NCBI GenBank assembly: GCA_030674455.1
Contig: JAUSGQ010000029.1
Span: 6,625 to 70,624, forward strand
From: a bacterium
GTDB lineage: Bacteria; Patescibacteriota; Minisyncoccia; Phycocordibacterales; UBA2100
DNA length: 64,000 nucleotides
Reading direction: 5' to 3'
Under the pieces are notes generated by a model. The model did not search any database. It saw nothing but the letters and a program-made list of their open reading frames with translations, and was not told the DNA's origin. The number at the start of each line of letters is the position of its first letter. Within the stretch, counting starts at the first letter, position 1. A program made the position numbers and the translations under genes. This document shows positions 2-55,110 of this stretch, piece by piece.

Positions 2-3000
2 TCAACTTCCGGCGACTTAAACATCTCTTCCAACGACAACAACGGCGCTCTAATCAACGACAGTTACTCCGCATGGAACATCAAACTCGGAGGCCAGTCA
101 GACGCCTTCGCAATTCAACGTTCTCCGACAGGCACACTCTCGTACGCCAACTTCTTTAACATCAAGAACAACGGCAATGTCGGCATCGGAACATCTTCTC
201 CATACGCAATGCTCTCCGTTGCAGGCCAAGTCGTCGGCACTTACTTCACCGCCACATCCACCTCGCAAGCCAACACATTCCCGTACGCAAGCACGACCGC
301 GCTCACCGCAAGCGGAAACGCATACCTCGGCACAACGACCATCACAAATCTCGCCGTCTCCAACACGAGTACATCAACATTCGCTGGCGGACTCCAATCG
401 ACATATCTGAACATCACCGGCACATTGGCCACGAGTACATTCGCAAACGGCATCACCACATCCGGCGGAGGACTCGGGATAGGAACATCCACGCCTGCAG
501 GTACAGTCGGCATCAACGGCAACCTATTCGTATCAAATGCAAACGCCTCTTCCACCTTCACCGGCAACGTGGAAGTTTTGGGCGGGCTGAAAATCGGCAC
601 TGGCTCTATTTATCTAAACGGCTCCGCCACTAGCACCTACTCATCTGGACTCCAGGCAAGTGCGCTAAATATCACCGGCACATCCGCAACATCAACATTC
701 GCGCGAGGCATTGACCTCGCTGGTGGATGTTTCAGCATCAACGGCACTTGTGTTGGTGGAGGCGGGACAGACACAGTGGTACGGCTCGGCTCGATACAAA
801 CTTTCAGCGCCTCGTCAACAAATCTCACCTACACAACGCCAGCGAGTACCTCTTATATTGTTGTTGAAGTATGGGGTAGCGGTGGTGGCGGCGGTGGTGG
901 CGGCGATGGTGCCAGCCAGGGCGGCGGTGGCGGCGGCGCTGGCGGGTACTCAATGAAGTTCATTACAAGTCCTGCTTCTACGTACAAATACACGATTACC
1001 GATGGCGGGACTGGCGGTCAAAACGGTGCCAATGGTTCCGCTGGCGGCACGTCATGCTTCGGAACAAACGCCACTGCGTGCACCACTCCGCTCCTAAGCG
1101 CGACCGGAGGCGCCCTTGGGAGTGGCACAGCAGGTGCCGGCGGTGCCGGTGGCGCTGGTTTCAGCGGTGATGTCAATATGACTGGCCAGGGCGGCATTGG
1201 CGGTGGCAACCGCGGTGGGACAGGCGGTAGCGCTCCACGGGGCGGCGGTGGAGGTGTTGGTGGTCCCGAGAATAGCGTTGGCGCGAGTTTCGGCGGCGGC
1301 GGCGGCGGTGCTGCCGCCGCGGGTAGCGCAACAGACGGTGGTAACGGAGGTGTGGGCGGCATCATCGTCTACGAATACAAGACTGTCACATCAGGTACCG
1401 ACCTCGCCGAGAACTATCCTGTTTCTGACCCATCCATATCAGCGGGTGAAATTGTTTCTTTTGACGGAGTGAATCCAATATTCGTTAAGCGTGCGGAGAA
1501 AGGCGAAGGACGACCGCTCGCGGGAATCATTTCCACAAAGCCCGGCCTTCTCCTAGACGATAACGATGACTCGCTCGGAGAAAGGCCCGTCGCTCTTGCC
1601 GGCCGCGTGCCGACGAAAGTTTCCGCAGAGAACGGCCCAATCGCTATCGGCGACCGCATCACGCTTTCCTCGGTGCCGGGTGTCGGTATGAAAGCGAACA
1701 TATTTGACGAATCCATAGGTGTCGCGCTTGAACCGTATGATGCAGACCCTTCGACAATCTCAGGGCAGGCGGGCGTTATCCAAGTCTTTATGAACCTTCA
1801 GCCGGGCATTGACGTGCAGGCAATCGGCAAAGCACTTATCGCTCCCGTTGCAACATCAACGCCCAACACCTTCGACTTCGTCGGCTCGCTAATTGATGCC
1901 ATCGCCGCTCGCATGGGAACCACGACCGTCACGAATGTCGCGCTCACAAATTCATCAACCACTGCGACCGACCTGCTCTGCCTTGGTGGCGATTGCCGCA
2001 CGGCGTGGCCTGACATTGCGACCTCAACGATTGACTTCTCGCAGTACGCGACGCTTGCCGATTTTGCCGTTGCAACCTCCAGTATGTTCGACTTCGTAAG
2101 TCGAACATACGTCACGAAGTATGAATTTGATGCGCTTTTTGCAACCACGACATCCTTGTCCGCCGAAGTCCTTGCGACGAAGGCGGAGCTTGCCGATTTA
2201 ACTACGAACTACGGACTACTGACTACGAACTACTCCACACAAGGAGACACCTTGTCGCAACTCGCATCCGCACTCGCAGGCCTCGCAACTTCTACTCCCG
2301 ATCTATCGCAATACGCATCCCAAGACTGGGTCTCCGCCCTCGTCGCCTCTTCTACGGACTACGCACTACGCACTACGAACTTTTTGACGGGAACAATGAC
2401 AGGAAATATTCTGCCCGACACAGACAACCTCTACGCCCTCGGCTCGCCGGAGAACCGCCTATCTAATGTGTACGCCAAGAACATCAACGCAGGCGACCTC
2501 ACATTCACCGAAACCACGAGCGCAATCTCCGGCGACACCCTCGCCGTCGGCGACATGGTTTCTCTTTACGTCACTTCAACAGCAGGAAGCACCCACACAA
2601 TTCCAATCAACCTCCGCACCGCGCTCAACTCCAACAGCTGGGGGGCCAACAATATCTTCTTCAATACGACAGGAGGATTCGGCATCGGCATCTCCAGCAC
2701 CACAGCTCTCCGAGCGAAGCTTGACGTGGAAGGCGCAATCGCCTCCGGCGACTCCCGCTACCTCACTCTCGCCAACACATCAGGAGCGAACGGCAACGCC
2801 GCCCTCCCGTACAGCTTCACCATCCCCTCAACTTCAGGCGACTTGAACATCTCCTCCAACGACAACAACGGCGCTCTCGTCAACTCCAGCTACTCCGCAT
2901 GGAACATCAACCTTGGAGGCCAATCAGACGCCTTTGCCATACAACGCTCTCCCAATGGAACACTTTCATACGCCAACTTCTTCAACATCAAGAACAACGG

Positions 3001-6000
3001 CAACGTCGGCATCGGAACATCTTCTCCATACGCCATGCTCTCGGTGGCAGGCCAAGTTGTCGGCACTTACTTCACCGCCACATCCACAACACTGGCTAAC
3101 ACCTTCCCATACGCAAGCACGACCGCGCTCACCGCAAGCGGAAACGCATACCTCGGCACAACGACCATCACAAACCTCGCCGTCTCCAACACGAGTACAT
3201 CAACATTCGCTGGCGGGCTCCAATCTACATATCTAAACATCACAGGCACAGTGTCGACATCAACATTCGCCAGAGGTATTGACCTCTCCGGCGGATGCTT
3301 CTCGGTGAATGGCACATGCGTCGGCGGTTCTTCCGTCACGGGTACGACCGGACAGCTTACATACTTCAGCGATACGAATACTGCCGTAGGCACATCCACG
3401 CTCTTTGTCTCCACCGCGAGCAACGTCGGAATCGGAACAACGACGCCCAACTGGACGCTGACATCTTCCAACTCAACAGGCCCTCAGCTTTCCCTCGGCG
3501 ATGGCTCCAACAACTCATGGACATTCAGAAACTCCGGCGCGACACTGTATCTCGCGACTTCCACATACTCCGCCACTTCAACAACAGCGGCTCTTGCCTT
3601 CAACAACTCCACGGGTGCCGCGACATTCGGCTCTCCCGCCACATCAACATTCACAGGAGGAATAACATCTACATACCTGAACATCACCGGCACAAACGCC
3701 ACTTCAACATTCGCTAGAGGAATTGACATCGCGGGCGGATGCTTCGCGATAAATGGAACGTGCGTGGGCGGCTCGTCGCTCACAGGCACCACCGGACAGC
3801 TCGCATACTTTAGCGGTACAGACACCGGAGTTGGAACTTCCACACTATTCATCTCCACAGCAAGCAATGTCGGCATCGGGACGACGACGCCGGGAGCAAC
3901 TCTCACAATCCAAGCCGCTCTCAACGCGACACCATTCATAATTGCATCCTCCACCGGCGCGACGATGCTCTCGGTAGACACGACCGGCGCGCTTTCGGCC
4001 AAATTAAAACAACTCACTGCCGATTACACCGTTGATTCCTCCAGTGCAAGCATCAGTGTCGGCGACGTCGTTTCGTATATCAATGGGAATGCGAAGAAAG
4101 CTAATGCCGTTGTCCCAGGCACCACCATCACCGCCGGCACTCCAGTCGCCGCCAATGCCGTCGCCTCCTCACCCGTCTCCGCCACCACCCTTGACGCCAC
4201 CCACTTCGTGGTGGCATATTCGGGTACTTCAGGCTATGCCAATGCTGTCGTAGGCACCGTCTCCGGCACAACCATCACATACGGCACTCCCGTCGCCCTA
4301 AACGCCGTCGCCTCCACCTACACCTCCGCCACCACCCTTGATTCTACCCACTTTGTGGTGGCGTATAGAAACGGAAGTACAGGCTACGCCAATGCTGTCG
4401 TATCCACCGTCTCCGGTACCACCATCACCGCTGGCACCCCCGTTGCCCTGAACGCCGTTGGCTCCACCTTACAGAATTCAAACTCATCAGCAGTCGCCGC
4501 TCTTGACTCCACCCACTTCGTGGTAGCGTATCGGAACGATGATACCACTTATGCCAACGCCGTCGTCTCCTCAGTCTCCGGTACCACCATCACCGCCGGC
4601 ACTCCCGTAGCGTTGAACGCCGTCGCCTCCAGCTACACCGCCACCGCCTCCCTTGACGCCACCCACTTCGTGGTTACGTATAAGGGCGCCTCAGGCTACG
4701 CCAATGCCGTTGTATCCTCAGTCTCCGGTACCACCATCACCGCCGGCACTCCCGCGGTTCTTAATGCCATCAATTCTTTCTACTCAAATACCGCCTCCCT
4801 TGACGCCACCCACTTCGTGGTAGCGTATTATAACGCGACAACAGGCTTCGGTGACGCCGTCATCTCCTCAGTCTCCGGTACCACCATCACCGCCGGCACT
4901 CCCGTGGCTCTTAATGCTGTTACCTCTACCTCCTACTCCGTCAACGCTCTGGACTCCACCCACTTTGTGGTTGCGTATAATGGCACATCAAACTACGCTA
5001 CCGCCGTCGTTTCTATCGTCTCCGGCACCACTTTCACTCCCGGCACTCCCGTGGCTCTTAATGCCGTTGCATCTGGGTTACATTCCGTTGCGGTCATAGA
5101 CGCCACCCACTTTGTGACGGCGTATCAGAACAACGTTACAACCTACGCTGACGCCGTCGTCTCTAGTCTCAATACCGTTATCGCCGCTGGTACTAACATT
5201 CTCGGCATGGCCACCAACGCTACGACGAGTACTAATAATACGATTACAGTTGCCTCCAACGGCATCGTGACAGGTCTCTCCGGTCTTACCGCTGGAAGCA
5301 CCTACTATTGGAATGGGGCGCTTACCACCACTGCGAGCACCAACTACCCCGTCGGAATCGCGCTCACCACCACCTCAATGCTTCTCAACTCCGGCAATCG
5401 CGGTGCGAGCGCGAGTACCGACCAATTCTTCGGCGATATGATATTCGCCAACAACTTCCGCATCACGGAGAATCAGAGTCTGCCCAACTCGCTCATCTTC
5501 AAGAACCAGCTCAGCCGCGACATCATGTCGCTGGACGAAAACGGCAACATTGCTCTTTCCGGGTTGCTCACGGCCTCCAATATCGGACCGAACATTTTCA
5601 ACCTGCTTGGCACGACTACTATAGATGAGCTCACGGCTTCGACCACCTTGACAAGCTCGGGGCAAGCAAGCACAACACCCACATGGGCAGGGGCGTTCGC
5701 AGACGCGAGTGATACGCTCAAGAGCGCTCTGCAAGAGTTCTCCGACGCGGTAGTTCAAGTCTTCGGCCGGGCAATCTACGCGACAGCGGGCATATTTGAA
5801 AAAATATTTTCAAAAGAGGTGCACACAGACAAACTCTGCGTTTCAGATTCGGAAGGGGAGACATGCGTTACGCGCGCCCAGCTTGATGTGCTTCTTGCTT
5901 CAGCTGCGACTGGAGCCGCTTCCGCCGAAGGCGGAAGTGGCGAAACAGCCAGCTCAACAGTGAGTAGCAGTACTGCCACATCTTCGGATTCTTCCGCGTC

Positions 6001-6385
6001 TTCTGCGTCTAGTTCCGCGCCGTCTGCGGGCGATAGTCAGGTGCCGACTATCGCCATCAACGGCAACAATCCCTCGAACATCACAATAGGCGACACCTAT
6101 GGCGACCTCGGAGCCATCATCACCGGCCCGACAGAATCAGACAAAAATCTTGGCATCTACACATTCCTCGATGGTGTGGCGATGGACACCATACAATTAG
6201 ATACGAGCGTGGCAGGCGAGCATACAATAGATTACGTCGCCACGAACTCCTTCGGCGCCGCGACCAGTACGCGCACAGTGATAATTGAAGCCCCGGCAGA
6301 AGTAGTTGTTGAAGTTCCGGCAGACACGGCAACTACGACAGACTCAACTGCGACTACAACGTCTGCAACAAGTACAACGCCTTAG
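2..6385 (+). CDS. Giant repeat-rich secreted/cell-surface protein, 5'-partial (frame open from window start). Contains NVGIGT(S/T)TP-type motifs, a glycine-rich module, LNITGT-ATSTFARGID-GGCF-INGTCVGG modules, eight ~50-aa 'THFVVAY' repeats, and a C-terminal Ig-like (DUF5011-like) domain with a Ser/Thr-rich linker
   Basis: Frame-2 translation is open from nt 2 and matches the later repeat unit at nt 2829-3250 (internal duplication). The ORF track M at 209 is internal. The C-terminal 'PTIAINGNNPSNITIGDTYGDLGAIITGPT...TRTVII' resembles Ig-like DUF5011 domains. Confidence 0.7.
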   Translation, partial: STSGDLNISSNDNNGALINDSYSAWNIKLGGQSDAFAIQRSPTGTLSYANFFNIKNNGNVGIGTSSPYAMLSVAGQVVGTYFTATSTSQANTFPYASTTALTASGNAYLGTTTITNLAVSNTSTSTFAGGLQSTYLNITGTLATSTFANGITTSGGGLGIGTSTPAGTVGINGNLFVSNANASSTFTGNVEVLGGLKIGTGSIYLNGSATSTYSSGLQASALNITGTSATSTFARGIDLAGGCFSINGTCVGGGGTDTVVRLGSIQTFSASSTNLTYTTPASTSYIVVEVWGSGGGGGGGGDGASQGGGGGGAGGYSMKFITSPASTYKYTITDGGTGGQNGANGSAGGTSCFGTNATACTTPLLSATGGALGSGTAGAGGAGGAGFSGDVNMTGQGGIGGGNRGGTGGSAPRGGGGGVGGPENSVGASFGGGGGGAAAAGSATDGGNGGVGGIIVYEYKTVTSGTDLAENYPVSDPSISAGEIVSFDGVNPIFVKRAEKGEGRPLAGIISTKPGLLLDDNDDSLGERPVALAGRVPTKVSAENGPIAIGDRITLSSVPGVGMKANIFDESIGVALEPYDADPSTISGQAGVIQVFMNLQPGIDVQAIGKALIAPVATSTPNTFDFVGSLIDAIAARMGTTTVTNVALTNSSTTATDLLCLGGDCRTAWPDIATSTIDFSQYATLADFAVATSSMFDFVSRTYVTKYEFDALFATTTSLSAEVLATKAELADLTTNYGLLTTNYSTQGDTLSQLASALAGLATSTPDLSQYASQDWVSALVASSTDYALRTTNFLTGTMTGNILPDTDNLYALGSPENRLSNVYAKNINAGDLTFTETTSAISGDTLAVGDMVSLYVTSTAGSTHTIPINLRTALNSNSWGANNIFFNTTGGFGIGISSTTALRAKLDVEGAIASGDSRYLTLANTSGANGNAALPYSFTIPSTSGDLNISSNDNNGALVNSSYSAWNINLGGQSDAFAIQRSPNGTLSYANFFNIKNNGNVGIGTSSPYAMLSVAGQVVGTYFTATSTTLANTFPYASTTALTASGNAYLGTTTITNLAVSNTSTSTFAGGLQSTYLNITGTVSTSTFARGIDLSGGCFSVNGTCVGGSSVTGTTGQLTYFSDTNTAVGTSTLFVSTASNVGIGTTTPNWTLTSSNSTGPQLSLGDGSNNSWTFRNSGATLYLATSTYSATSTTAALAFNNSTGAATFGSPATSTFTGGITSTYLNITGTNATSTFARGIDIAGGCFAINGTCVGGSSLTGTTGQLAYFSGTDTGVGTSTLFISTASNVGIGTTTPGATLTIQAALNATPFIIASSTGATMLSVDTTGALSAKLKQLTADYTVDSSSASISVGDVVSYINGNAKKANAVVPGTTITAGTPVAANAVASSPVSATTLDATHFVVAYSGTSGYANAVVGTVSGTTITYGTPVALNAVASTYTSATTLDSTHFVVAYRNGSTGYANAVVSTVSGTTITAGTPVALNAVGSTLQNSNSSAVAALDSTHFVVAYRNDDTTYANAVVSSVSGTTITAGTPVALNAVASSYTATASLDATHFVVTYKGASGYANAVVSSVSGTTITAGTPAVLNAINSFYSNTASLDATHFVVAYYNATTGFGDAVISSVSGTTITAGTPVALNAVTSTSYSVNALDSTHFVVAYNGTSNYATAVVSIVSGTTFTPGTPVALNAVASGLHSVAVIDATHFVTAYQNNVTTYADAVVSSLNTVIAAGTNILGMATNATTSTNNTITVASNGIVTGLSGLTAGSTYYWNGALTTTASTNYPVGIALTTTSMLLNSGNRGASASTDQFFGDMIFANNFRITENQSLPNSLIFKNQLSRDIMSLDENGNIALSGLLTASNIGPNIFNLLGTTTIDELTASTTLTSSGQASTTPTWAGAFADASDTLKSALQEFSDAVVQVFGRAIYATAGIFEKIFSKEVHTDKLCVSDSEGETCVTRAQLDVLLASAATGAASAEGGSGETASSTVSSSTATSSDSSASSASSSAPSAGDSQVPTIAINGNNPSNITIGDTYGDLGAIITGPTESDKNLGIYTFLDGVAMDTIQLDTSVAGEHTIDYVATNSFGAATSTRTVIIEAPAEVVVEVPADTATTTDSTATTTSATSTTP
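4095..5170 (+). repeat. Tandem array of about 8 x 150-nt coding repeats inside the giant protein (ANAVVSSVSGTTITAGTPVALNAV...LDATHFVVAY units), possibly propeller-blade-like
   Basis: Repeated peptide units seen in the translation; the nucleotide periodicity of about 150 nt is visible. Confidence 0.75.
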
Positions 6386-6486: not shown

Positions 6487-7506
6487 ATGAAGAAAAAAAA
6501 TAAACTTCCTGACAATCAAATAACATTTTATGAATCACCCGACGGAACGGTGAACATTGAAGTGTTATATGCTGAAGAAAACATTTGGCTTACTCAAAAA
6601 AGAATGGCCGAGCTCTTTAATTGTTCCACAGACAACATTTCGCTTCACTTAAAGAATATTTATCAGGAAAATGAAGTTGACCAAAAATCAACTACCGAGG
6701 AATTCTCGGTAGTTCAAAAAGAGGGAGAAAGAAAGATTGCTCGAAAAGTCACTTTTTATAGTCTCGAGGCCATTATCGCCGTAGGGTATCGAGTAAGCTC
6801 CGAGCGCGGAACACAATTTCGCCAGTGGGCAACGGGCATTTTGAAAAAGTATATCCACAAGGGGTACTCGCTGGATGTGAATCGAATGAAATACGGCTCT
6901 CGTTTTAGCACAAGATATTTTGACGAGCTGTACGAAGAAATCAGAGATATCCGTACGGGTGAGCGGATGATGTATCAAAAAATCACCGATATTTATGCAA
7001 CGGCAATCGATTATTCGCCAAAAGCACATGAGAGCAAAGAATTTTTTGCCACCGTACAAAACAAACTGCACTTTGCCATAACGGGAAAAACTGCGGCAGA
7101 AATTATCACAGAGCGAGTAAGCAGTAAAAAAGACAAAATGGGATTAACGTCTTGGCGATGCTCTCCGAGAGGGAAAATTATGTCAAGCGACACCGTCATT
7201 GCCAAAAATTACTTGGACAAAAAAGAACTAGAACATTTGAACCGCATTGGAAATATGTATTTGGACTATGCTGAATTACAAGTGGCTCGGAGCAAAACAA
7301 TGACTATGAAGGATTGGATAAAAAAACTCAATGCCTTTCTCAAATTTAGCGAATATGAGATTTTGACGAACGCGGGAAAAATATCGCACGAGGTGGCAGT
7401 AGTTTTAGCAGAGCGTGAGTATGGAAAATACCGCGCGATTCAAGACAAAAATTACATTTCTGATTTTGACCGTGAAGTGAAGAAACTACGCAAAAAAACG
7501 CCATGA
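6487..7506 (+). CDS. RhuM-family virulence-associated protein (putative DNA-binding)
   Basis: N-terminal 'ITFYESPDGTVNIEVLYAEENIWLTQKRMAELF...ISLHLKNIY' is the hallmark start of RhuM-family proteins. Confidence 0.8.
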   Translation: MKKKNKLPDNQITFYESPDGTVNIEVLYAEENIWLTQKRMAELFNCSTDNISLHLKNIYQENEVDQKSTTEEFSVVQKEGERKIARKVTFYSLEAIIAVGYRVSSERGTQFRQWATGILKKYIHKGYSLDVNRMKYGSRFSTRYFDELYEEIRDIRTGERMMYQKITDIYATAIDYSPKAHESKEFFATVQNKLHFAITGKTAAEIITERVSSKKDKMGLTSWRCSPRGKIMSSDTVIAKNYLDKKELEHLNRIGNMYLDYAELQVARSKTMTMKDWIKKLNAFLKFSEYEILTNAGKISHEVAVVLAEREYGKYRAIQDKNYISDFDREVKKLRKKTP

Positions 7507-11228: not shown

Positions 11229-11352
11229 TAATTTGCAAATCCCAATTTGCAATTTGCAAACAAAATACCAAACCACAATTTCTCAGGCTCGGTTCGTTTG
11301 AGTTTTGTATTTTAGGATTTCTTTGCAAATTGATTTTTGATGCTTGCAAATT
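11229..11352. repeat. About 125-bp intergenic element rich in 'ttgcaaat' repeats; copy 1 of 2
   Basis: Shares 'aatttgcaaa.cccaatttgcaatttgcaaa' and 'gatttctttgcaaattgatttttg..gcttgcaaattc' with 37993-38113. Confidence 0.8.
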
Positions 11353-24675: not shown

Positions 24676-25647
24676 ATGACTGAAGTTCTCAAAGAAACCA
24701 ACTTTTCCAACCTCGGTGAAAAGAAAACGGGCAAAGTCCGCGACATTTACATACAACCCGAGCGATTGGTGCTCGTGACGACCGACAGACATTCTTCGTT
24801 CGACCGCATCATCGCTCACATCCCGCACAAGGGCCAAGTGCTGAATCAAATCAGCGCTTTTTGGTTTGAGCAGACAAAAGATATTATTCCCAACCACGTA
24901 CTCGCGATTCCGGACCCCAACGTGACCATCGGTAAGAAATGCACGATGGTTCCCGTTGAAGCTGTTGTGCGCGGATATGTCACAGGCGTTACCGGTACAT
25001 CCATTTGGACACGGTACTCAAAAGGAAAACGGGATTTTGGCGATATTGTCTTGCCGGACGGATTGAAGAAAAATCAGAAATTGCCTCACCCGATATTTGA
25101 CCCGACGACAAAAGAAGATACGCACGACAGGACGCTTTCGCTTAAAGAAATGGTCTCAGAAGGATTGGTTACAGCGGAAATCTTGGAGCAGATACAAAAA
25201 ACGGCTCTCGCATTGTTTGCGCGAGGAGAAGAAATCGCAAAATCACGCGGACTTATTCTTGTGGATACGAAGTACGAATTTGGTTTAGACAAGTCTGACT
25301 TGTCGGAATCCGACAAGTCAGACTTGTCTAAAGGGCGATTGGTGTTGATTGACGAAATTCATACGCCCGACTCCTCGCGCTATTGGCAAGCGGATTCCTA
25401 CGAAGAGCGATTTTCAAAAGGCGAAGAGCCCCAGTATTTTGATAAGGAATTTTTACGCCTGTGGTTCAGGGAGCATTGCGACCCCTACAAGGACGCGACA
25501 CTTCCGGAGGCGCCTAAAGAGCTCGTGCAGGAGCTTTCGCGACGCTACATCCAAATGTTCGAGCAGATTACGGGAAAGAAATTCGTACCAGGCGAAGAGC
25601 CGATAATTCCGCGCATGGAGAAGAATTTATCAGCGTATAGCGTCTAG
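24676..25647 (+). CDS. purC: SAICAR synthetase. Contains a short in-frame tandem duplication (KSDLSESDKSDLSK, nt about 25290-25330)
   Basis: 'GKVRDIY...LVLVTTDRHSSFDR', 'VVRGYVTG' SAICAR synthase motifs. Confidence 0.85.
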   Translation: MTEVLKETNFSNLGEKKTGKVRDIYIQPERLVLVTTDRHSSFDRIIAHIPHKGQVLNQISAFWFEQTKDIIPNHVLAIPDPNVTIGKKCTMVPVEAVVRGYVTGVTGTSIWTRYSKGKRDFGDIVLPDGLKKNQKLPHPIFDPTTKEDTHDRTLSLKEMVSEGLVTAEILEQIQKTALALFARGEEIAKSRGLILVDTKYEFGLDKSDLSESDKSDLSKGRLVLIDEIHTPDSSRYWQADSYEERFSKGEEPQYFDKEFLRLWFREHCDPYKDATLPEAPKELVQELSRRYIQMFEQITGKKFVPGEEPIIPRMEKNLSAYSV

Positions 25648-25665
25648 CTTCTAGCGTCTAGAAAT

Positions 25666-27600: not shown

Positions 27601-28377
27601 TTATTGCCGGAGGCCTAAGCCCGTGCGGATGAAGTACCAGTTTACGGCTATGAGAATCGCGGTGAGCGCTCCTAAGACGCCGAGACTGGTCATTAGAGAT
27701 ACGTCTGATACGCCCATAAAACCATCGCGGAAGCCGTTTACCATGTAGAAAATGGGGTTTGCAAAAGTCAATTTCTGCCAAAGCGGCGGGAGCGCTAGCG
27801 CCGAATAGAAAACGCCGCCGAGATACACAAGCGGAGTCAAAACGAATGTCGGTACGATGGTGATTCCGTCAAAACTTTTTGCATAGATGCCGTTTACAAG
27901 CCCGGCCAGGGAAAATAACATGCTGGAAAGAATTAAGAATATGAGAATTGTAAACGGTTGCGTTAGAGGCAATGAGGTGAAAAAGGCAGAAATAATTATG
28001 ACCAAAATTCCTATCGTTATTCCGCGCACCATGCCGCCGGCGACATATCCCGCGATTATGACCCACACGGGTGTCGGCGAGACGAGTATTTCATCGATGT
28101 TGCGTGAGAAGAATTTGGCCTGAAAGAAAGTCGTTGCCACGTTTGAAAATGAGTTGGTGACGACCGCGAGCATCACGAGCCCGGGGACAACGAACGTGAT
28201 ATACGGGTATCCGCCGATTTCTCCGATGCGGCCTCCGAGAACTTTTCCGAATACGAGAAAGTAGAGAACTGAAGTGATTATGGACGGCAAGAATGTTTGC
28301 GGCCAAATGCGGAATATGCGAACAACGTCTTTTCGGACGATGGTGTAAAACGATGTGAGCATTTGAGAAGGAGTCAT
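27601..28377 (-). CDS. ABC-2 type transporter permease
   Basis: Six-TM profile. 'ABC-2' family signature region 'TFANPIFYMVNGFRDGFMG'. Confidence 0.75.
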   Translation of the reverse strand: MTPSQMLTSFYTIVRKDVVRIFRIWPQTFLPSIITSVLYFLVFGKVLGGRIGEIGGYPYITFVVPGLVMLAVVTNSFSNVATTFFQAKFFSRNIDEILVSPTPVWVIIAGYVAGGMVRGITIGILVIIISAFFTSLPLTQPFTILIFLILSSMLFSLAGLVNGIYAKSFDGITIVPTFVLTPLVYLGGVFYSALALPPLWQKLTFANPIFYMVNGFRDGFMGVSDVSLMTSLGVLGALTAILIAVNWYFIRTGLGLRQ

Positions 28378-28389
28378 AGCGTATAGCGT

Positions 28390-28755
28390 TTAGCGATTAG
28401 CGTTTAGTTCTAATTTCTTAATCATGACTGACAGCATCTTCTGAACTTCTGTTAACAAATTCTTCGCCTTATCATAGTTAATACGCTTGTGTGCAGATTC
28501 CGCGATCAGAATTTGCGTTTCTAGCTCGGCGGCTGAACCATCGGCTATGCGCAAAAAGTGCAGGAAATCTTTTTTTGTGTTCCGTCGATGGCCCTCTGCA
28601 ATATTTGATGGGATTGAAACAGCCGCCCGGCACATCTGACTCTGGAGCCCAAATAATTCGCGCGGTGGAAATTCGCTTGTTCTAGCGTATACCTCTTTTG
28701 CAAGCTCTACAGCCTTTTGCCAGACAATCAGTTCTTTGAACGATGTGATGTACAT
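28390..28755 (-). CDS. Four-helix-bundle protein (23S rRNA intervening-sequence protein family), flanked by 13-bp inverted repeats agcgattagcgtt / aacgctaatcgct
   Basis: 'ELIVWQKAVELAKEVYARTSEFPPRELFGLQSQMCRAAVSIPSNIAEGHRR...GSAAELETQILIA' is the canonical 4HB family pattern. Inverted repeats at 28392-28404 and 28777-28789. Confidence 0.8.
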   Translation of the reverse strand: MYITSFKELIVWQKAVELAKEVYARTSEFPPRELFGLQSQMCRAAVSIPSNIAEGHRRNTKKDFLHFLRIADGSAAELETQILIAESAHKRINYDKAKNLLTEVQKMLSVMIKKLELNANR

Positions 28756-28780
28756 ATTTCTATCCGCTATTCGCTGAACG

Positions 28781-29551
28781 CTAATCGCTGTTTTTTGCAG
28801 TTAACTGCAAAAAGACCTCCTCTAATTTCCCCCCGCGATAGCCCTGCTTTTGCGCCTTATCTTCGTCGTGCAGGGACAGAACCTCGTCCATTGTTCCCGA
28901 GGCGACGATAATTCCCTTATTGATGATGGCTACATGTTTGCAGAGCTGTTCCGCTTCTTCGAGATAATGAGTGGTGAGCAGAATGGTGACGCCGCGTTTG
29001 GTTAAGATATGTAGGTAATCCCACATTTCACGGCGCAGCTCCACATCGACGCCGGCCGTCGGCTCGTCGAGTATCAAAAATCGCGGCTTATGAATGAGTG
29101 CGCGCGCAATCAAAAGCCGGCGCTTCATTCCGCCGGAGAGCGACCAGCCGGTCTCGTTTCTTTTGTCGCCTATGCCGAGGTCCTTCAGCAACTGGTCCGC
29201 ATAGGGAATCGCGGTCTTGCGCGGGATTCCGTAGTATCCTCCCTGATTTACAACCACGTCGATACATTTTTCAAAGGGATTAAAATTGATTTCTTGCGGG
29301 ACGACGCCTATGTATGTGCGCGCCGCTTCGGAATCTTTTTCTATGTCGTAGCCAAACACGGATATGCTGCCGCCCGTTTTATTTACCAATCCGGTTACGA
29401 TGCCGATGATGGTGGTTTTTCCGGCGCCATTCGGGCCCAGAAGTGCGAAAAAATCGCCAGCAGGAATATCGAGCGACACGTCCTTCAGCGCTTCTGTGCC
29501 GTTACTATAAGTTTTCTTAAGATTCTTGATTGAAAGGGCAAGCGATGTCAT
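28781..29551 (-). CDS. ABC transporter ATP-binding protein
   Basis: Walker A 'GPNGAGKTT', signature 'LSGGMKRRL', Walker B 'LILDEPTAGVD'. Confidence 0.85.
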   Translation of the reverse strand: MTSLALSIKNLKKTYSNGTEALKDVSLDIPAGDFFALLGPNGAGKTTIIGIVTGLVNKTGGSISVFGYDIEKDSEAARTYIGVVPQEINFNPFEKCIDVVVNQGGYYGIPRKTAIPYADQLLKDLGIGDKRNETGWSLSGGMKRRLLIARALIHKPRFLILDEPTAGVDVELRREMWDYLHILTKRGVTILLTTHYLEEAEQLCKHVAIINKGIIVASGTMDEVLSLHDEDKAQKQGYRGGKLEEVFLQLTAKNSD

Positions 29552-37992: not shown

Positions 37993-38113
37993 AAATTTGC
38001 AAAACCCAATTTGCAATTTGCAAAAGAAATTTCAATTTTCAAAGCGGTTTTGCCGTTTGATTCTTGTAGTTTTTGATTTCTTTGCAAATTGATTTTTGGA
38101 GCTTGCAAATTCT
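37993..38113. repeat. 'ttgcaaat'-rich intergenic element; copy 2 of 2
   Basis: Matches 11229-11352. Confidence 0.8.
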
Positions 38114-40434: not shown

Positions 40435-41783
40435 CGCGCGAGAAGAACGGCAGGATAGTAAAAGCGTCCTTTTGGCTACTTATTTTGGGCGCGATAGTCG
40501 GATTAGGAAGCATATTCTTCGCTGGAGCGTCCGCAGGCGTGTTTGATTCAAGCTCTATAGATACGGGCGACACGGCGTGGATGCTCGTCTCGGCCGCGTT
40601 CGTCATGCTCATGACGCCCGCTGTCGGATTTTTCTACGGTGGAATGGTCTCCTCGAAAAATGTCGTCTCTGTCTTAAAACAATCGCTCGTCATTTTTTCT
40701 CTTGTAACTGTCCAATGGGCGGTCATCGGCTATAGCTTGGCGTTTGCGCCGGATGTCGGCGGCATTATCGGCAATTTGGATTTCTTTGGTTTGCGCGGCG
40801 TGGGATTTGCGCCCGACCCGAATTATGCCGCGACAATTCCCGCGCTTGTGTTTATGGTGTACCAGTCGATGTTCGCCACGATTACCCCCGTACTTATTAT
40901 CGGTGCATTTGTGGAACGAATTAAATTCAAGACGCTTGTAGTATTCACTCTGCTCTGGGCGACTCTCGTGTATGACCCGATAGCGCACTGGGTGTGGTCG
41001 CCGGATGGATGGCTGCGCGCTCTCGGGGCGCTCGATTTTGCCGGAGGAACGGTGGTTCACATGAGCGCGGGCTTCTCGGCGCTCGCCGCGGCGCTCCTTG
41101 TCGGCAGGCGGCTCAAGCAATCTAACATCGGCGAGAATGCGAACAACATCCCGTTCGTTATTTTGGGCGCGGTTCTGCTGTGGTTCGGCTGGTTCGGCTT
41201 TAACGCCGGCTCGGCTCTCACGGCCGGAGCGCTCGCGGCGAGCGCATTCGTCGCTACTAATATCGCCGCCGCTGTCGCGGCGCTCACATGGGCGACTCTC
41301 TCATGGGCGGAAAACAAGAAACCCTCGGCCATGTCGGCCGCCACGGGCGCCGTTTGCGGTTTCGTCGCAATCACACCCGCTTCAGGATTTGTCGGCCCCA
41401 TCGCTGCTATCGCTATTGGAATCATCGGCGGAGTCGTAACCTACGGGGCGGTGTGGCTGCGAACCAAGAAAACAAAAATAGACGACACGCTCGATGTGTG
41501 GGCGGCGCACGGAATAGGAGGATTGACGGGCGCGGTACTCACCGGATTTTTTGCGGAGAAAGTTATCAACTCTGCGGGCAACAACGGACTCTTGTTCGGC
41601 AATCCCAATCAGCTTCTTGTGCAAGTCATAGCGGTTGCCGCTGTCGGAGTCTATTCTTTTGCTGCGACGTGGCTGATATTGAAACTGCTCACATTCTTTA
41701 AGATGCCACTCCGAGTCAGTGAAGCCGAAGAAGTCCAAGGGCTAGACATGGCGGTGCATGGAGAAGCTGGTTACAGGTTATAG
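40419..41783 (+). CDS. amt: Ammonium transporter (Amt family)
   Basis: 'DTAWMLVSAAFVMLMTPAVGFFYGGMV', 11-TM profile. Overlaps glnA by 16 nt. Confidence 0.9.
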   Translation: MEQLLAREKNGRIVKASFWLLILGAIVGLGSIFFAGASAGVFDSSSIDTGDTAWMLVSAAFVMLMTPAVGFFYGGMVSSKNVVSVLKQSLVIFSLVTVQWAVIGYSLAFAPDVGGIIGNLDFFGLRGVGFAPDPNYAATIPALVFMVYQSMFATITPVLIIGAFVERIKFKTLVVFTLLWATLVYDPIAHWVWSPDGWLRALGALDFAGGTVVHMSAGFSALAAALLVGRRLKQSNIGENANNIPFVILGAVLLWFGWFGFNAGSALTAGALAASAFVATNIAAAVAALTWATLSWAENKKPSAMSAATGAVCGFVAITPASGFVGPIAAIAIGIIGGVVTYGAVWLRTKKTKIDDTLDVWAAHGIGGLTGAVLTGFFAEKVINSAGNNGLLFGNPNQLLVQVIAVAAVGVYSFAATWLILKLLTFFKMPLRVSEAEEVQGLDMAVHGEAGYRL

Positions 41784-41864
41784 GTGTTAGGATATAGCTT
41801 AATAGTGCGAGTTCGTGAGATTCATGAGGTTAAACCTCATCGATTTAAGAGTTTAATATAAAAG

Positions 41865-41916: not shown

Positions 41917-42132
41917 CTAGATGCCAGTCTTCAGCGACAGCGCTGGGGCGCCAGCCAGAATTTGCTCGAGCTCTTCCATGGAGCCTTGGAAATCAGTCAA
42001 TTTGGCGAACATGACAAACTGTTCGCCGTCTTGCCTTCCCCACGATTCTAGGAGAGAGCACCCATGTCTTTCGAGCGTTCCCAACGCCTCGAACGCCGAA
42101 GCGGCGTTCGAGGTTTTTACCTGGATATCCAT
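41917..42132 (-). CDS. Small hypothetical protein (about 71 aa from MDIQVKTS...)
   Basis: ORF only. Confidence 0.3.
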   Translation of the reverse strand: MDIQVKTSNAASAFEALGTLERHGCSLLESWGRQDGEQFVMFAKLTDFQGSMEELEQILAGAPALSLKTGI

Positions 42133-42339
42133 AAAGACCTTTCTCCCCCGCGAGGGGACTATAAAGAAAAAAACAAGAACCCAAGTTGCATTGGCACTAT
42201 CGCAAATCACAGAGAGAGAGAGTCAATTGTAAGAGCCAGTAGCTGGTAGCCAGTAGCTTGTAGCCGGAAGAGTCAACACCCTGAGAATTTCTCCGCAGAT
42301 TTAAACTGCGTAGTAGGGTATTGCCTCGAAAGAAAATAC

Positions 42340-52769: not shown

Positions 52770-52774
52770 ACATG

Positions 52775-52875
52775 TCCGAATCTACGAATTATCCGAATGC
52801 TACGAATGGCTACAAATGTGGGAATTTATTATTTGTAGTTATTTGTAGATTGGAATCCATTTGTAGATTGGTACA
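52775..52875. repeat. Intergenic repeat element (cgaatgctacgaatggctacaaatgt ... attatttgtagattggaat), copy 1, upstream of argJ
   Basis: Shared with 54980-55110. Confidence 0.75.
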
Positions 52876-52881
52876 CCCTGT

Positions 52882-54103: not shown

Positions 54104-54979
54104 ATGCCTTCCGACAAATCAATAATACGCAAAGCAGATGTCCTCATTGAGGCGCTTCCGTACATACAGAATTTTTACGGAAAGACCATCGTCATTAAAT
54201 ACGGCGGCGCGGCGATGACCGATAAAAGTTTGCGCAAGGAAGTTCTTCGCGACATCGTTTTTATGAACTACGTCGGCATGCGCCCGATACTCATTCACGG
54301 CGGTGGGCCGATGGCGACGGCTCGGCTTAAAGAACTCGGGCGCGAGGTGAGGTTCGTAAATGGCTATCGCGTTACCGACAAAGAATCCATGGCCATTATT
54401 GAGGAGGAGTTCATGAAAATAAATACGGAAATCGTGCAGGAGCTGACAGCGCTCGGCTCGGCGGCAATTTCGCTATCCGGCAAAGAAGACCGCTTCATCC
54501 AGGTCGTGAAGCACGCGCCTATTGACGGCCAGGACATCGGATTTGTCGGTGAGATAAAGAACATCAACAGCGACGTGCTTCAGAAAATCATCGCAAGCGA
54601 TATTATCCCGGTCATTCCTCCCATCGGCATCGGAATTAAGGATGATCTGCCGTACAACATCAATGCCGATCAGGTCGCAGCCGAGATTGCGAGAAGTGTG
54701 CGCGCGCTCAAACTCGTCGTGCTCACGAATGTGAGCGGTATTTTGACCGACATTAAAAACCCGTCCTCGCTCCTCTCGCACGTAAATGCCGAAGAGGCAA
54801 AGCAGATGATTGATTCCGGCGTTATCTCAGCTGGTATGATACCGAAAGTAAATTCGTGCCTTCGCGCTTTGGACAGGGGAGTCAGGAAGGCCCACATTAT
54901 TGACGTACAGGTACCGCACGGGATACTCATGGAAATCTTTACGGATAAAGGTATCGGAACGGAGATAGTTAAAAAATGA
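54104..54979 (+). CDS. argB: Acetylglutamate kinase
   Basis: 'IVIKYGGAAM', 'ILIHGGGP'. Start taken at MPSDKS, 4 nt after the argJ stop. Confidence 0.85.
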   Translation: MPSDKSIIRKADVLIEALPYIQNFYGKTIVIKYGGAAMTDKSLRKEVLRDIVFMNYVGMRPILIHGGGPMATARLKELGREVRFVNGYRVTDKESMAIIEEEFMKINTEIVQELTALGSAAISLSGKEDRFIQVVKHAPIDGQDIGFVGEIKNINSDVLQKIIASDIIPVIPPIGIGIKDDLPYNINADQVAAEIARSVRALKLVVLTNVSGILTDIKNPSSLLSHVNAEEAKQMIDSGVISAGMIPKVNSCLRALDRGVRKAHIIDVQVPHGILMEIFTDKGIGTEIVKK

Positions 54980-55110
54980 TACCAATCTACAAATGTATTC
55001 CAATCTACGAATGCCAATCTACAAATGATACGAATGCTACGAATGGCTACAAATGTTAGTATTTCACATTTGTAATTATTTGTAGATTGGAATATATTCG
55101 CAGATTGGAA
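54980..55110. repeat. Intergenic repeat element, copy 2 (three ccaatctacaaatg units, then an inverted atttgtagattgg), upstream of argD
   Basis: Seen in sequence. Confidence 0.75.

Follow-up and report, generated by a model that had tools for sequence, protein, structure and literature searches.

The open reading frame (ORF) carried by intervening sequences (IVS) of ribosomal RNA has been known since 1993 (PMC3936711, ref. 47). In the 23S rRNA IVS of Coxiella burnetii and Leptospira, an S23p/PF05635 ORF lies in the loop of a ~0.4-kb element with terminal inverted repeats of ~28-30 nt; RNase III processing of the element is proven, the host product is spared, and a patchy distribution is accompanied by evidence of horizontal transfer (PMC4990558). 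The same domain, 23S_rRNA_IVP, has been found in rRNA insertions of bacteria of the Candidate Phyla Radiation (CPR), where it was termed functionally uncharacterised (PMC11270868), and its genes had been noticed earlier in cas operons and taken as a functional association (PMC3936711). Here we describe a four-helix-bundle (4HB) gene of this family in a 64,000-nt stretch, hereafter the window, of a Patescibacteriota contig (JAUSGQ010000029.1, positions 6,625 to 70,624; assembly GCA_030674455.1). The gene is part of a cassette which, in contrast to the IVS in its rRNA helix, sits in an intercistronic junction of a protein operon and whose arms, unlike those of the IVS, are built as tandem heptamer arrays, which at the same time provide the contexts for stop and start codons.

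Tandem heptamer arrays are the second group of described sequences to which the cassette can be compared. Cyanobacterial STRR repeats are arrays of this kind, and cyanobacterial heptamer repeats were reportedly described as early as 1990. For Xanthomonas campestris, one report describes the 'quadruplex-forming' heptamer GGGAATC at 186 sites, with ~70 convergent pairs, a preference for four units and locations between co-directional ORFs; it states the function to be unknown and also mentions GGGGA(C/T)T arrays in Nostoc (PMC4692102). TAACTGA arrays, which adjoin start codons and contain stops in all three frames, are reported from Beggiatoaceae, cyanobacteria and Bacteroidetes; no protein partner is given there, and the text contains neither '23S' nor 'four-helix' (PMC4679880). 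G-quadruplex or regulatory roles have been suggested for heptamer arrays, and the accessible portions of the two reports draw no link to a protein (PMC4692102, PMC4679880). Full-text literature searching, which leaves most subscription journals outside its reach, returned no paper linking PF05635/4HB genes to heptamer arrays. There is on one side a 4HB, or 'S23p', protein with solved structures and no known function and on the other side a set of heptamer arrays, in Xanthomonas, cyanobacteria and Beggiatoa, with no known protein partner.

The cassette spans 412 bp of the window's minus strand (28378-28789) and consists of the 4HB gene flanked by two 30-nt, mutually inverted arms. It separates two genes of an ABC transporter, all three genes being transcribed from one strand in the order ATPase (28781-29551, minus; PF00005, E=8.5e-31), 4HB (28390-28755, minus; 121 aa) and ABC-2 permease (27601-28377, minus; PF01061, E=8.4e-33; NF011648, 339 bits). 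A sequence-only reading of this DNA had placed the 4HB gene exactly between permease and ATPase on the same strand, which is confirmed by these coordinates and by the matches to PF05635 and TIGR02436 given below. On the coding strand, the 5' arm (28760-28789, minus) follows the sequence ..AAAAAC and reads AGCGATT AGCGTTC AGCGAAT AGCGGAT AG, then AAAT and the ATG of the 4HB gene; the 3' arm (28378-28407, minus) is the inverse array CTAAACG CTAATCG CTAAACG CTATACG CT. Tandem arrays with a period of 7 and 4.3-4.4 copies are detected at 25632, 28377 and 28760, the arm unit being AGCGNNT.

The sequence-only reading had delimited the cassette by 13-bp inverted repeats embedded in 'tagcg' tracts. These repeats are real, AGCGATTAGCGTT at 28392-28404 and AACGCTAATCGCT at 28777-28789 being exact reverse complements, and only ~0.003 perfect 13-mer inverted pairs are expected in a region of 600 nt ((600^2/2)/4^13). 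They are, however, the best-matching stretch of the 30-nt arms, whose arm-to-arm complementarity is 80%, and the true boundaries are the tandem heptamer arrays themselves. We also considered and rejected the possibility that 'tagcg' is a simple repeat of ubiquitous occurrence: the window has 56 copies of TAGCG where ~64 are expected, and heptamer-phased tracts are limited to three sites, namely both arms and a solo array at 25632-25661. A search with the heptamer pattern gave 6 hits in the window against 0.03 expected, and none of 100 shuffles reached 6, which places the observation far beyond chance.

The arms are integrated into the reading frames around them. The ATPase takes its stop codon (28781-28783) from the 5' arm, in which TAG returns with each 7-nt unit, and its last codons also fall within the arm; its C-terminus is ..QLTAKNSD* in the window, where relatives whose site is empty have ..QLTSEK*. 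The C-terminus of the 4HB protein and its TAA stop (28390-28392) are encoded in the 3' arm, which runs with a spacer of 0 into the ATG of the permease (28375-28377), the latter directly adjoining the last base of the arm, so that both host genes are intact. The positions of the ATPase and 4HB stops inside the arms, and a third, solo array 2.7 kb away at the purC/purB junction, refine what had been read from the sequence before. Scans of the cassette found no internal sigma-70-type promoter and no intrinsic terminator; it is therefore most likely transcribed together with the host operon.

Profile comparisons of the 121-aa protein yielded 123 bits with PF05635 (gathering score 33.8; residues 7-109) and 122.9 bits with TIGR02436 (cut-off 24). 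The family motif is present as R43..S50-N51-I-A-E54-G55, in agreement with the published pattern G..R...S...N..E (PMC3936711), and the modelled monomer is predicted to adopt the four-helix-bundle fold. By these scores the window protein is a member of PF05635/TIGR02436, annotated as '23S rRNA IVS protein' or 'S23 ribosomal protein'. Its gene has a dN/dS (ratio of nonsynonymous to synonymous substitution rates) of 0.05-0.07, indicating that it is under strong purifying selection, in contrast to the ORF of the Coxiella IVS, which is decaying (PMC4990558). Two 'S23 ribosomal protein' structures from structural genomics, XCC0516 (PDB 2GSC, a homopentamer) and BT_0352 (PDB 2RLD), represent the family with another arm unit (GGGAATC), another host operon and another phylum. 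We know of no function for either protein.

The modelled structure also resembles Avd, the accessory protein of diversity-generating retroelements (DGRs; PDB 4DWL, 8UB7), at an identity of only 13%. One could hence take the gene for the Avd accessory gene of such a retroelement, or for its remnant, and the similarity, albeit weak, is also seen with the Avd profile models. Yet the scores remain far from the cut-offs (NF033474, 21.6 bits against 80; PF22296, 22.9 against 40), neither a reverse transcriptase nor a template or variable repeat was found at the cassette, no reverse-transcriptase domain is present among the eight genes called on the 4.8-kb contig carrying the cassette, and in many genomes the slot lies at a junction of an ABC operon. 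We regard this origin as hardly credible. On the same contig, reverse transcriptases and recombinases were checked within ~4 kb around the cassette: no transposase was found in that range and no integrase in the neighborhood, and nothing recognisable as a transposase, integrase, reverse transcriptase or nuclease is encoded by the cassette itself. PADLOC gave no defence-system hit. An integron gene cassette was rejected as well, as the element has two symmetric arms where an integron cassette has one attC, lies alone in a housekeeping operon and has no integrase nearby.

Comparison with the rRNA IVS gives a mixed picture. The window contains no match to any Rfam family, rRNA included, and the flanks are ABC transporter genes, so that identity with an rRNA IVS was discarded; the arms nevertheless have the properties of an IVS stem, with 30 nt of 80% complementarity that pair with each other around the 4HB ORF in the minimum-energy fold. 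RNase III processing is proven for the IVS (PMC4990558) and would, for the window cassette, follow by analogy. The most fitting classification is that of an IVS-type 4HB element in a variant form, located at an operon junction.

For comparison of the same junction in relatives, we retrieved 80 orthologous loci with the permease from species-level genome representatives, nearly all of them Patescibacteria of the Kaiserbacteria/Paceibacteria type. The ATPase/permease junction is empty in 75 of the 80, contains a 4HB cassette in three (L004, L007, L030) and another small inverted-repeat element in two; in no relative is the slot taken by an unrelated gene. In the closest empty relatives the gap between the two genes is 1-2 nt (L003, GAAAAG-TAG-T-ATG; L005, GAAAAA-TAA-AT-ATG; L006, GAA-TAA-T-ATG). 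The window protein shares 91% identity with that of the L004 cassette and 90% with that of the L007 cassette, and both cassettes have the same AGCG arms; the L030 protein is 70% identical, and its arms, with a period-10 unit TAGAGGNNNN, are still inverted complements of each other. In the permease tree, the cassette-bearing genomes are scattered among empty sisters (L007/L005, L004/L003, L173/L012). The presence and absence of homologous cassettes in an otherwise orthologous operon bears out the earlier proposal of a discrete inserted cassette. The two remaining occupied junctions hold a gene-less hairpin element of 115 bp (L002) and an element of ~150 bp with terminal inverted repeats (L031, 3856-4000). 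The case illustrates how small insertions are tolerated in very compact CPR genomes: the elements fit precisely into the space from one stop codon to the following start, and they carry a stop/start context with them.

The comparison of L004 and L007 is the most informative with respect to mobility. Their 4HB genes share 96.1% nucleotide identity (dS, synonymous divergence, 0.15), whereas the adjoining permeases share 76% (dS ~2.6); the 4HB gene is not intrinsically slow at synonymous sites, since the genes of L001 and L004 have a dS of 1.03. In a sliding comparison, the identity between L004 and L007 is 62-85% at the 3' end of the ATPase, 95-100% over a stretch that begins a little upstream of the 4HB gene's start and reaches the 3' arm (with the exception of one 40-nt window at 85%), and back to 75-85% in the permease within a few nucleotides of the ATG; the 5' arms differ by an indel of one 7-nt unit. 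L007 resembles its empty sister L005 until ~28 nt before the 5' arm, continues with the sequence of the cassette loci, including a palindrome TTTTTGCAGYTRACTGCAAAAA, and is L005-like again within 6 nt of the permease ATG. The contrast in identity between cassette and permease, taken together with the empty sisters, points to horizontal spread into the same junction. Identities of 4HB gene and permease are also discordant among the eight cassette-bearing loci, as in L001/L162 (83% against 61%) and L162/L174 (65% against 77%). By these comparisons, most of which involve metagenome-assembled genomes (MAGs) or metagenome contigs, the cassette is exchanged horizontally between hosts and usually lands in the same junction, gene and arms traveling together. 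Homologous recombination in the conserved flanks and site-specific homing would both lead to the same junction, and the data fit both equally.

The left edge of the exchanged region coincides with the ~28-nt tract that contains the perfect 22-nt palindrome TTTTTGCAGTTAACTGCAAAAA (also given as TTTTTGCAGYTRACTGCAAAAA; 28792-28813), located in the 3' end of the ATPase gene just upstream of the 5' arm. This tract is common only to the cassette-bearing L001, L004 and L007 and is absent from the empty L003 and L005. Lying at the left recombination breakpoint, the palindrome may belong to the mobile unit or constitute a recognition hairpin.

Homologs with at least 67% identity almost always occupy the ATPase/permease slot, in different wider synteny (L162-L167, L173, L174, P0007), and one homolog of 70% identity lies upstream of an epimerase gene instead (L176). 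Beyond this subfamily, we analyzed 80 metagenome loci of widely different G+C content that encode homologs 44-63% identical to the window protein. Nearly all of them have a short-period array upstream of the 4HB gene and its reverse complement downstream, the downstream array often including the 4HB stop codon. The closest of these homologs reside in unrelated housekeeping operons, between an aminotransferase and a Mur ligase gene, upstream of tpi, downstream of ssb, in a pilM/N cluster and at tsf/frr. An inverted-repeat score of at least 24 was reached by 59% of 73 4HB genes and by 3.2% of 125 other ORFs of the same loci, and the three top-scoring 'control' ORFs turned out to be further PF05635 genes (E 1e-37 to 1e-42), an unplanned blind confirmation.

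In a survey of 100 4HB genes found with a hidden Markov model (HMM), in which arrays were detected with Tandem Repeats Finder, 89 genes had an array at one or both ends and 47 at both, many loci ending at contig ends. The period was 7 in 106 of 141 arrays (75%) and 8 in 30, and the median array had 4.3 copies (31 nt). As read on the coding strand, G-rich 5' arms prevailed by 49 to 7 and C-rich 3' arms by 69 to 5, and ~80% of the 4HB genes lay between two co-directional ORFs. The sequence-only reading had proposed to look for the same inverted repeats at other 4HB genes; inverted arms are indeed found in almost all cases, but the repeat unit differs between cassettes, whereas within any one cassette both arms have a unit in common. 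At L149 (1300-4700), for example, three 4HB cassettes with units of the GCGAGCT type, CAGACCC and TAGGGAT separate four consecutive co-directional ORFs. Homologs of 58-70% identity have TAGCG/TAGCT units in unrelated operons, and more distant ones mostly have units of the AGGGG type. Cyanobacterial cassettes follow the same design, with GTAGGGA/TCCCTAC arms in Nostoc edaphicum and a similar arrangement in Geminocystis. We conclude that, across the phyla sampled, the location of a 4HB gene between a G-rich period-7/8 array and its reverse complement, flanked by co-directional genes, is a rule of the family.

The pattern also bears on whether the heptamer tracts could be ordinary simple-sequence repeats, grown by slippage, that flank the gene by chance. 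Heptamer simple-sequence repeats are described as common in some bacteria (PMC4692102). Such an origin is nonetheless refuted by the pattern counts in the window and by the scores of 4HB genes against control ORFs, and also by the clustering of arrays in 683 kb comprising the CPR loci and the window, where the 0.3% of sequence adjoining 4HB genes holds 8% of the arrays; the likelihood that chance explains the tracts is negligible.

More weight has to be given to a transposon of the MITE type (miniature inverted-repeat transposable element), mobilized by a transposase encoded elsewhere, for instance with a TA target, in which the arrays would be terminal inverted repeats and the 4HB gene cargo. 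The inverted termini TAG...CTA fit this idea, as do gene-less versions and the collection of other inverted-repeat elements in the same junctions (L002, L031, L009/L010). Yet no target-site duplication was resolved with a TA-target model on filled and empty junctions, which is explained by the ends TAG..CTA merging with the host stop and start codons, and the search within ~4 kb revealed no transposase. Further, the cargo always belongs to one family, and across phyla the arm unit changes along with the 4HB gene, which would be unexpected if an unrelated transposase recognised the ends. On balance we consider this origin very improbable.

The arms of 4HB cassettes agree with the published heptamer arrays in many respects: a period of 7, a preference for ~4 units, locations between co-directional ORFs, stops in several frames, a G-rich strand just after a stop and a C-rich one just before a start, and the occurrence of both convergent pairs and solo arrays. 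In the window, too, stops lie inside the arrays and starts follow 0-4 nt after them. The difference is that here the arrays prove to be the paired arms of 4HB gene cassettes. The correspondence extends to X. campestris, where XCC0516 is encoded in a cassette with GGGAATC arms that splits accB and accC. The supplement of the GGGAATC report lists array #15 between bccP (XCC0517) and a 'conserved' XCC0516, and the main text does not mention the latter (PMC4692102). The accB/4HB/accC cassette is kept with its GGGAATC arms in three genera of Xanthomonadales, namely Xanthomonas, Dyella and Dokdonella (L177-L184). No cassette with TAACTGA arms was among the loci we fetched. The new elements of this analysis are tandem-heptamer inverted arms as a hallmark of the whole 4HB family and their coincidence with the published, unexplained heptamer repeats.

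A cassette on a plasmid of Picosynechococcus sp. PCC 7003 (L171) has its inverted arms between cmr2 (cas10) and cmr3. This suggests that the 'association' of 4HB genes with CRISPR-Cas loci reflects insertion at operon junctions and not a shared function. More generally, the location of a 4HB gene in a cas, acc, nrd or ABC operon is no reason to take it as a functional partner of that operon, as was done for cas (PMC3936711).

Arrays are not confined to cassettes. In the 4HB-bearing metagenome loci we counted 204 short-period arrays, of which 116 lie at most 90 nt from a 4HB gene, a zone that makes up 13.8% of the sequence. A further 25 form inverted pairs, comprising ~ten pairs without a 4HB gene between them and, for the rest, cassette arms located just past 90 nt. 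The remaining 63 of the 204 are solo arrays.

The solo array of the window (25632-25661, plus strand) reads AGCGTAT AGCGTCT AGCTTCT AGCGTCT AG, with AAAT and ATG coming next. The purC stop codon lies within the array, which ends at the start of purB with TAGAAATATG, as is the case at the 4HB start. The array, which is accompanied by an N-terminal extension of purB by 6 codons, is also present in L002 (7277-7307) and L004 (4105-4134); it is missing from L003, L006 and L008, in which purC and purB overlap. It may be the remnant of a deleted cassette, although the N-terminal extension of purB shows no similarity to the 4HB protein. The purC/purB junctions of L009 (~6810-6970) and L010 (~6500-6660) contain other small elements bounded by inverted repeats; of the small junction elements, one is a GC-rich hairpin of ~160 nt and another an element of ~150 nt with the ends CCCGGTGCAAC...GTTACACCGGG. 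The window itself and Xanthomonas are positive examples of cognate solo arrays near cassettes.

Gene-less hairpins of ~110-135 nt are found in the window at 52770-52880 and 54975-55110, in both cases exactly between co-directional ORFs. Their arms consist of 2-4 tandem 9-nt units, CTAC[G/A]AATG / ATTTGTAGATTGG, and the motif occurs 13 times in the window where 1.3 occurrences are expected. The element in the ATPase/permease junction of L002 (3886-4000) belongs to the same 9-nt-unit family. In genomes as compact as these, the junctions between genes seem to be safe harbours, or else hot spots.

Repeats that occur both with and without a gene have precedents. In the systems formed by REP sequences (repetitive extragenic palindromes) or bacterial interspersed mosaic elements (BIMEs) and REP-associated tyrosine transposases (RAYTs), as in MITEs and their parent insertion sequences (IS), a gene lies between inverted copies of a short repeat that is also scattered without the gene, as hairpins or solo copies. 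The 4HB arrays resemble both in that gene-free copies of the repeat are spread over many intergenic sites within one genome. They differ in that RAYTs and IS transposases are recognisable enzymes and the 4HB protein has no known catalytic motif, and from REP/BIME also in that the window arms are tandem arrays instead of single palindromes.

Considering all these results, the explanation to which we give somewhat better than an even chance is that of a horizontally spreading cassette whose arms would serve as cis-acting sites for the 4HB protein, as an IVS-like stem, or as both, and which would spread by DNA exchange. The protein encoded by the cassette would, as an oligomer, recognise the arms, by analogy to Avd, the pentameric nucleic-acid-binding partner of the DGR reverse transcriptase; with ~4-5 heptamers per arm, one unit per 4HB subunit is conceivable. 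In the transcript of the operon, the arms could pair into a stem of ~30 bp around the 4HB ORF, and an RNase III cut in this stem, as in the 23S IVS, would separate the messages of ATPase, 4HB protein and permease. Spread would proceed by exchange of DNA between relatives, after which the cassette would recombine or home into the same junction. Hints of a partner acting in trans come from the gene-less inverted array pairs and solo arrays in genomes with 4HB genes, and from XCC0516 carrying the GGGAATC unit of X. campestris.

Several points weigh against this explanation. Binding, processing and transposition are all steps inferred from sequence, and to our knowledge no catalytic activity is associated with the 4HB fold. 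Cognate solo arrays are not enriched within ~3 kb of cassettes (3 of 55 against 6 of 275), a comparison of low power, and chimeric joins at repeats are conceivable in principle for the MAG contigs. Mismatches between the arms do not show an excess of G.U over A.C on the sense strand (65 against 88, p=0.07), and shuffling the order of the units leaves the complementarity of the arms unchanged (0.892 against 0.886), from which it follows that this complementarity is fully explained by both arms being arrays of one motif. An RNA hairpin is thus possible and not specifically supported over two arrays of the same motif. Finally, the near-confinement of the subfamily of at least 67% identity to the ATPase/permease slot in diverse Paceibacteria and the residence of the accB/accC cassette across one order would both fit a domesticated, vertically kept function.

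The results on the arms are also relevant to a simpler scheme, in which the element is purely an IVS-like RNA, its arms do nothing but form an RNase III-cut stem that makes the insertion harmless, and the 4HB ORF is a selfish passenger. The IVS of Coxiella and Leptospira, with its terminal stem of ~28 bp, S23p ORF in the loop and proven RNase III cleavage, is a close match to this scheme, the predicted fold of the cassette pairs the arms, and the gene-less mini-elements form strong hairpins (RNA fold z=-5.7). Conversely, neither a sense-strand G.U bias nor helix-level covariation is seen, 75% of the arrays have a period of 7 although a stem could be built without tandem heptamers, solo arrays cannot form a stem, and strong purifying selection would be unexpected for a passenger without a role. 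We therefore think it quite unlikely that the arms act in this way only.

The main rival to the spreading cassette is a domesticated intercistronic regulator, a module of post-transcriptional or translational control of benefit to the host, which would set the ratio of the flanking products (ATPase to permease, or AccB to AccC) by means of the 4HB protein and the arrays, would be inherited mostly vertically and would be immobile today. The residence patterns named above, in the ATPase/permease slot and, with conserved GGGAATC arms, in the accB/accC slot of Xanthomonas, Dyella and Dokdonella, agree with such a role, as does the strong purifying selection on the 4HB gene. Arrays adjoin start codons in place of a Shine-Dalgarno sequence, as is also described for the TAACTGA repeats (PMC4679880), and repeat-bearing loci in Xanthomonas are unusually stable (PMC4692102). 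A regulator of the operon is, however, difficult to reconcile with the absence of the cassette from 75 of 80 orthologous operons, sister genomes included, with the discordance of cassette and host phylogenies and one very recent transfer, and with family members in unrelated operons and in rRNA. Moreover, the ORF is decaying in Xanthomonas citri, where it carries a frameshift and continues across the 3' arm into accC, and in Coxiella (PMC4990558). We judge domestication to be unlikely, though worth keeping in view.

The spreading cassette, which we prefer, admits a bolder extension that we put forward as a tentative possibility. The 4HB proteins of PF05635 may be the sequence-specific partners of heptamer arrays such as STRR, GGGAATC and AGCGNNT, each oligomer binding its own heptamer. 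A gene with its inverted arrays would then be either an autonomous element without a transposase or an RNA-control module; its non-autonomous derivatives, or its targets, would be the hairpins without a gene and the solo arrays that are dispersed over operon junctions. If this were true, 4HB proteins and heptamers would together make up a mobile or regulatory system of a new class, and both the ORF of the rRNA IVS and the heptamer repeats would be explained. If the arrays are arms, derivatives or targets of 4HB cassettes, both puzzles, each of long standing, become directly testable in genetically tractable organisms, at accB-XCC0516-accC in Xanthomonas and in Nostoc.

Short-period repeats occur at further places in the window. 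An ORF of 103 aa (41921-42232) lies between two arrays, GGTTATA in 4.7 copies (41769-41801), which contains the stop of the upstream gene, and AGCCAGT in 4.6 copies (42234-42265). We rejected it as a cassette of the 4HB type, as it has no Pfam hit and its two arrays are not complementary; it could be another kind of array-associated small gene. A tract of AATTTGC heptamers is present in two intergenic copies, at 11230-11259 and 37994-38043 (..CCCAATTTGCAATTTGCAAA..). Heptamer arrays are also found within a coding sequence: an ORF of 2058 aa (209-6385) contains in-frame arrays of AACTACG and CTACGCA in an orientation that gives no stops, with repeats at 2200-2233, 2352-2381 and 4121-5170, and additionally has long tandem repeats of 147 and 297 nt.

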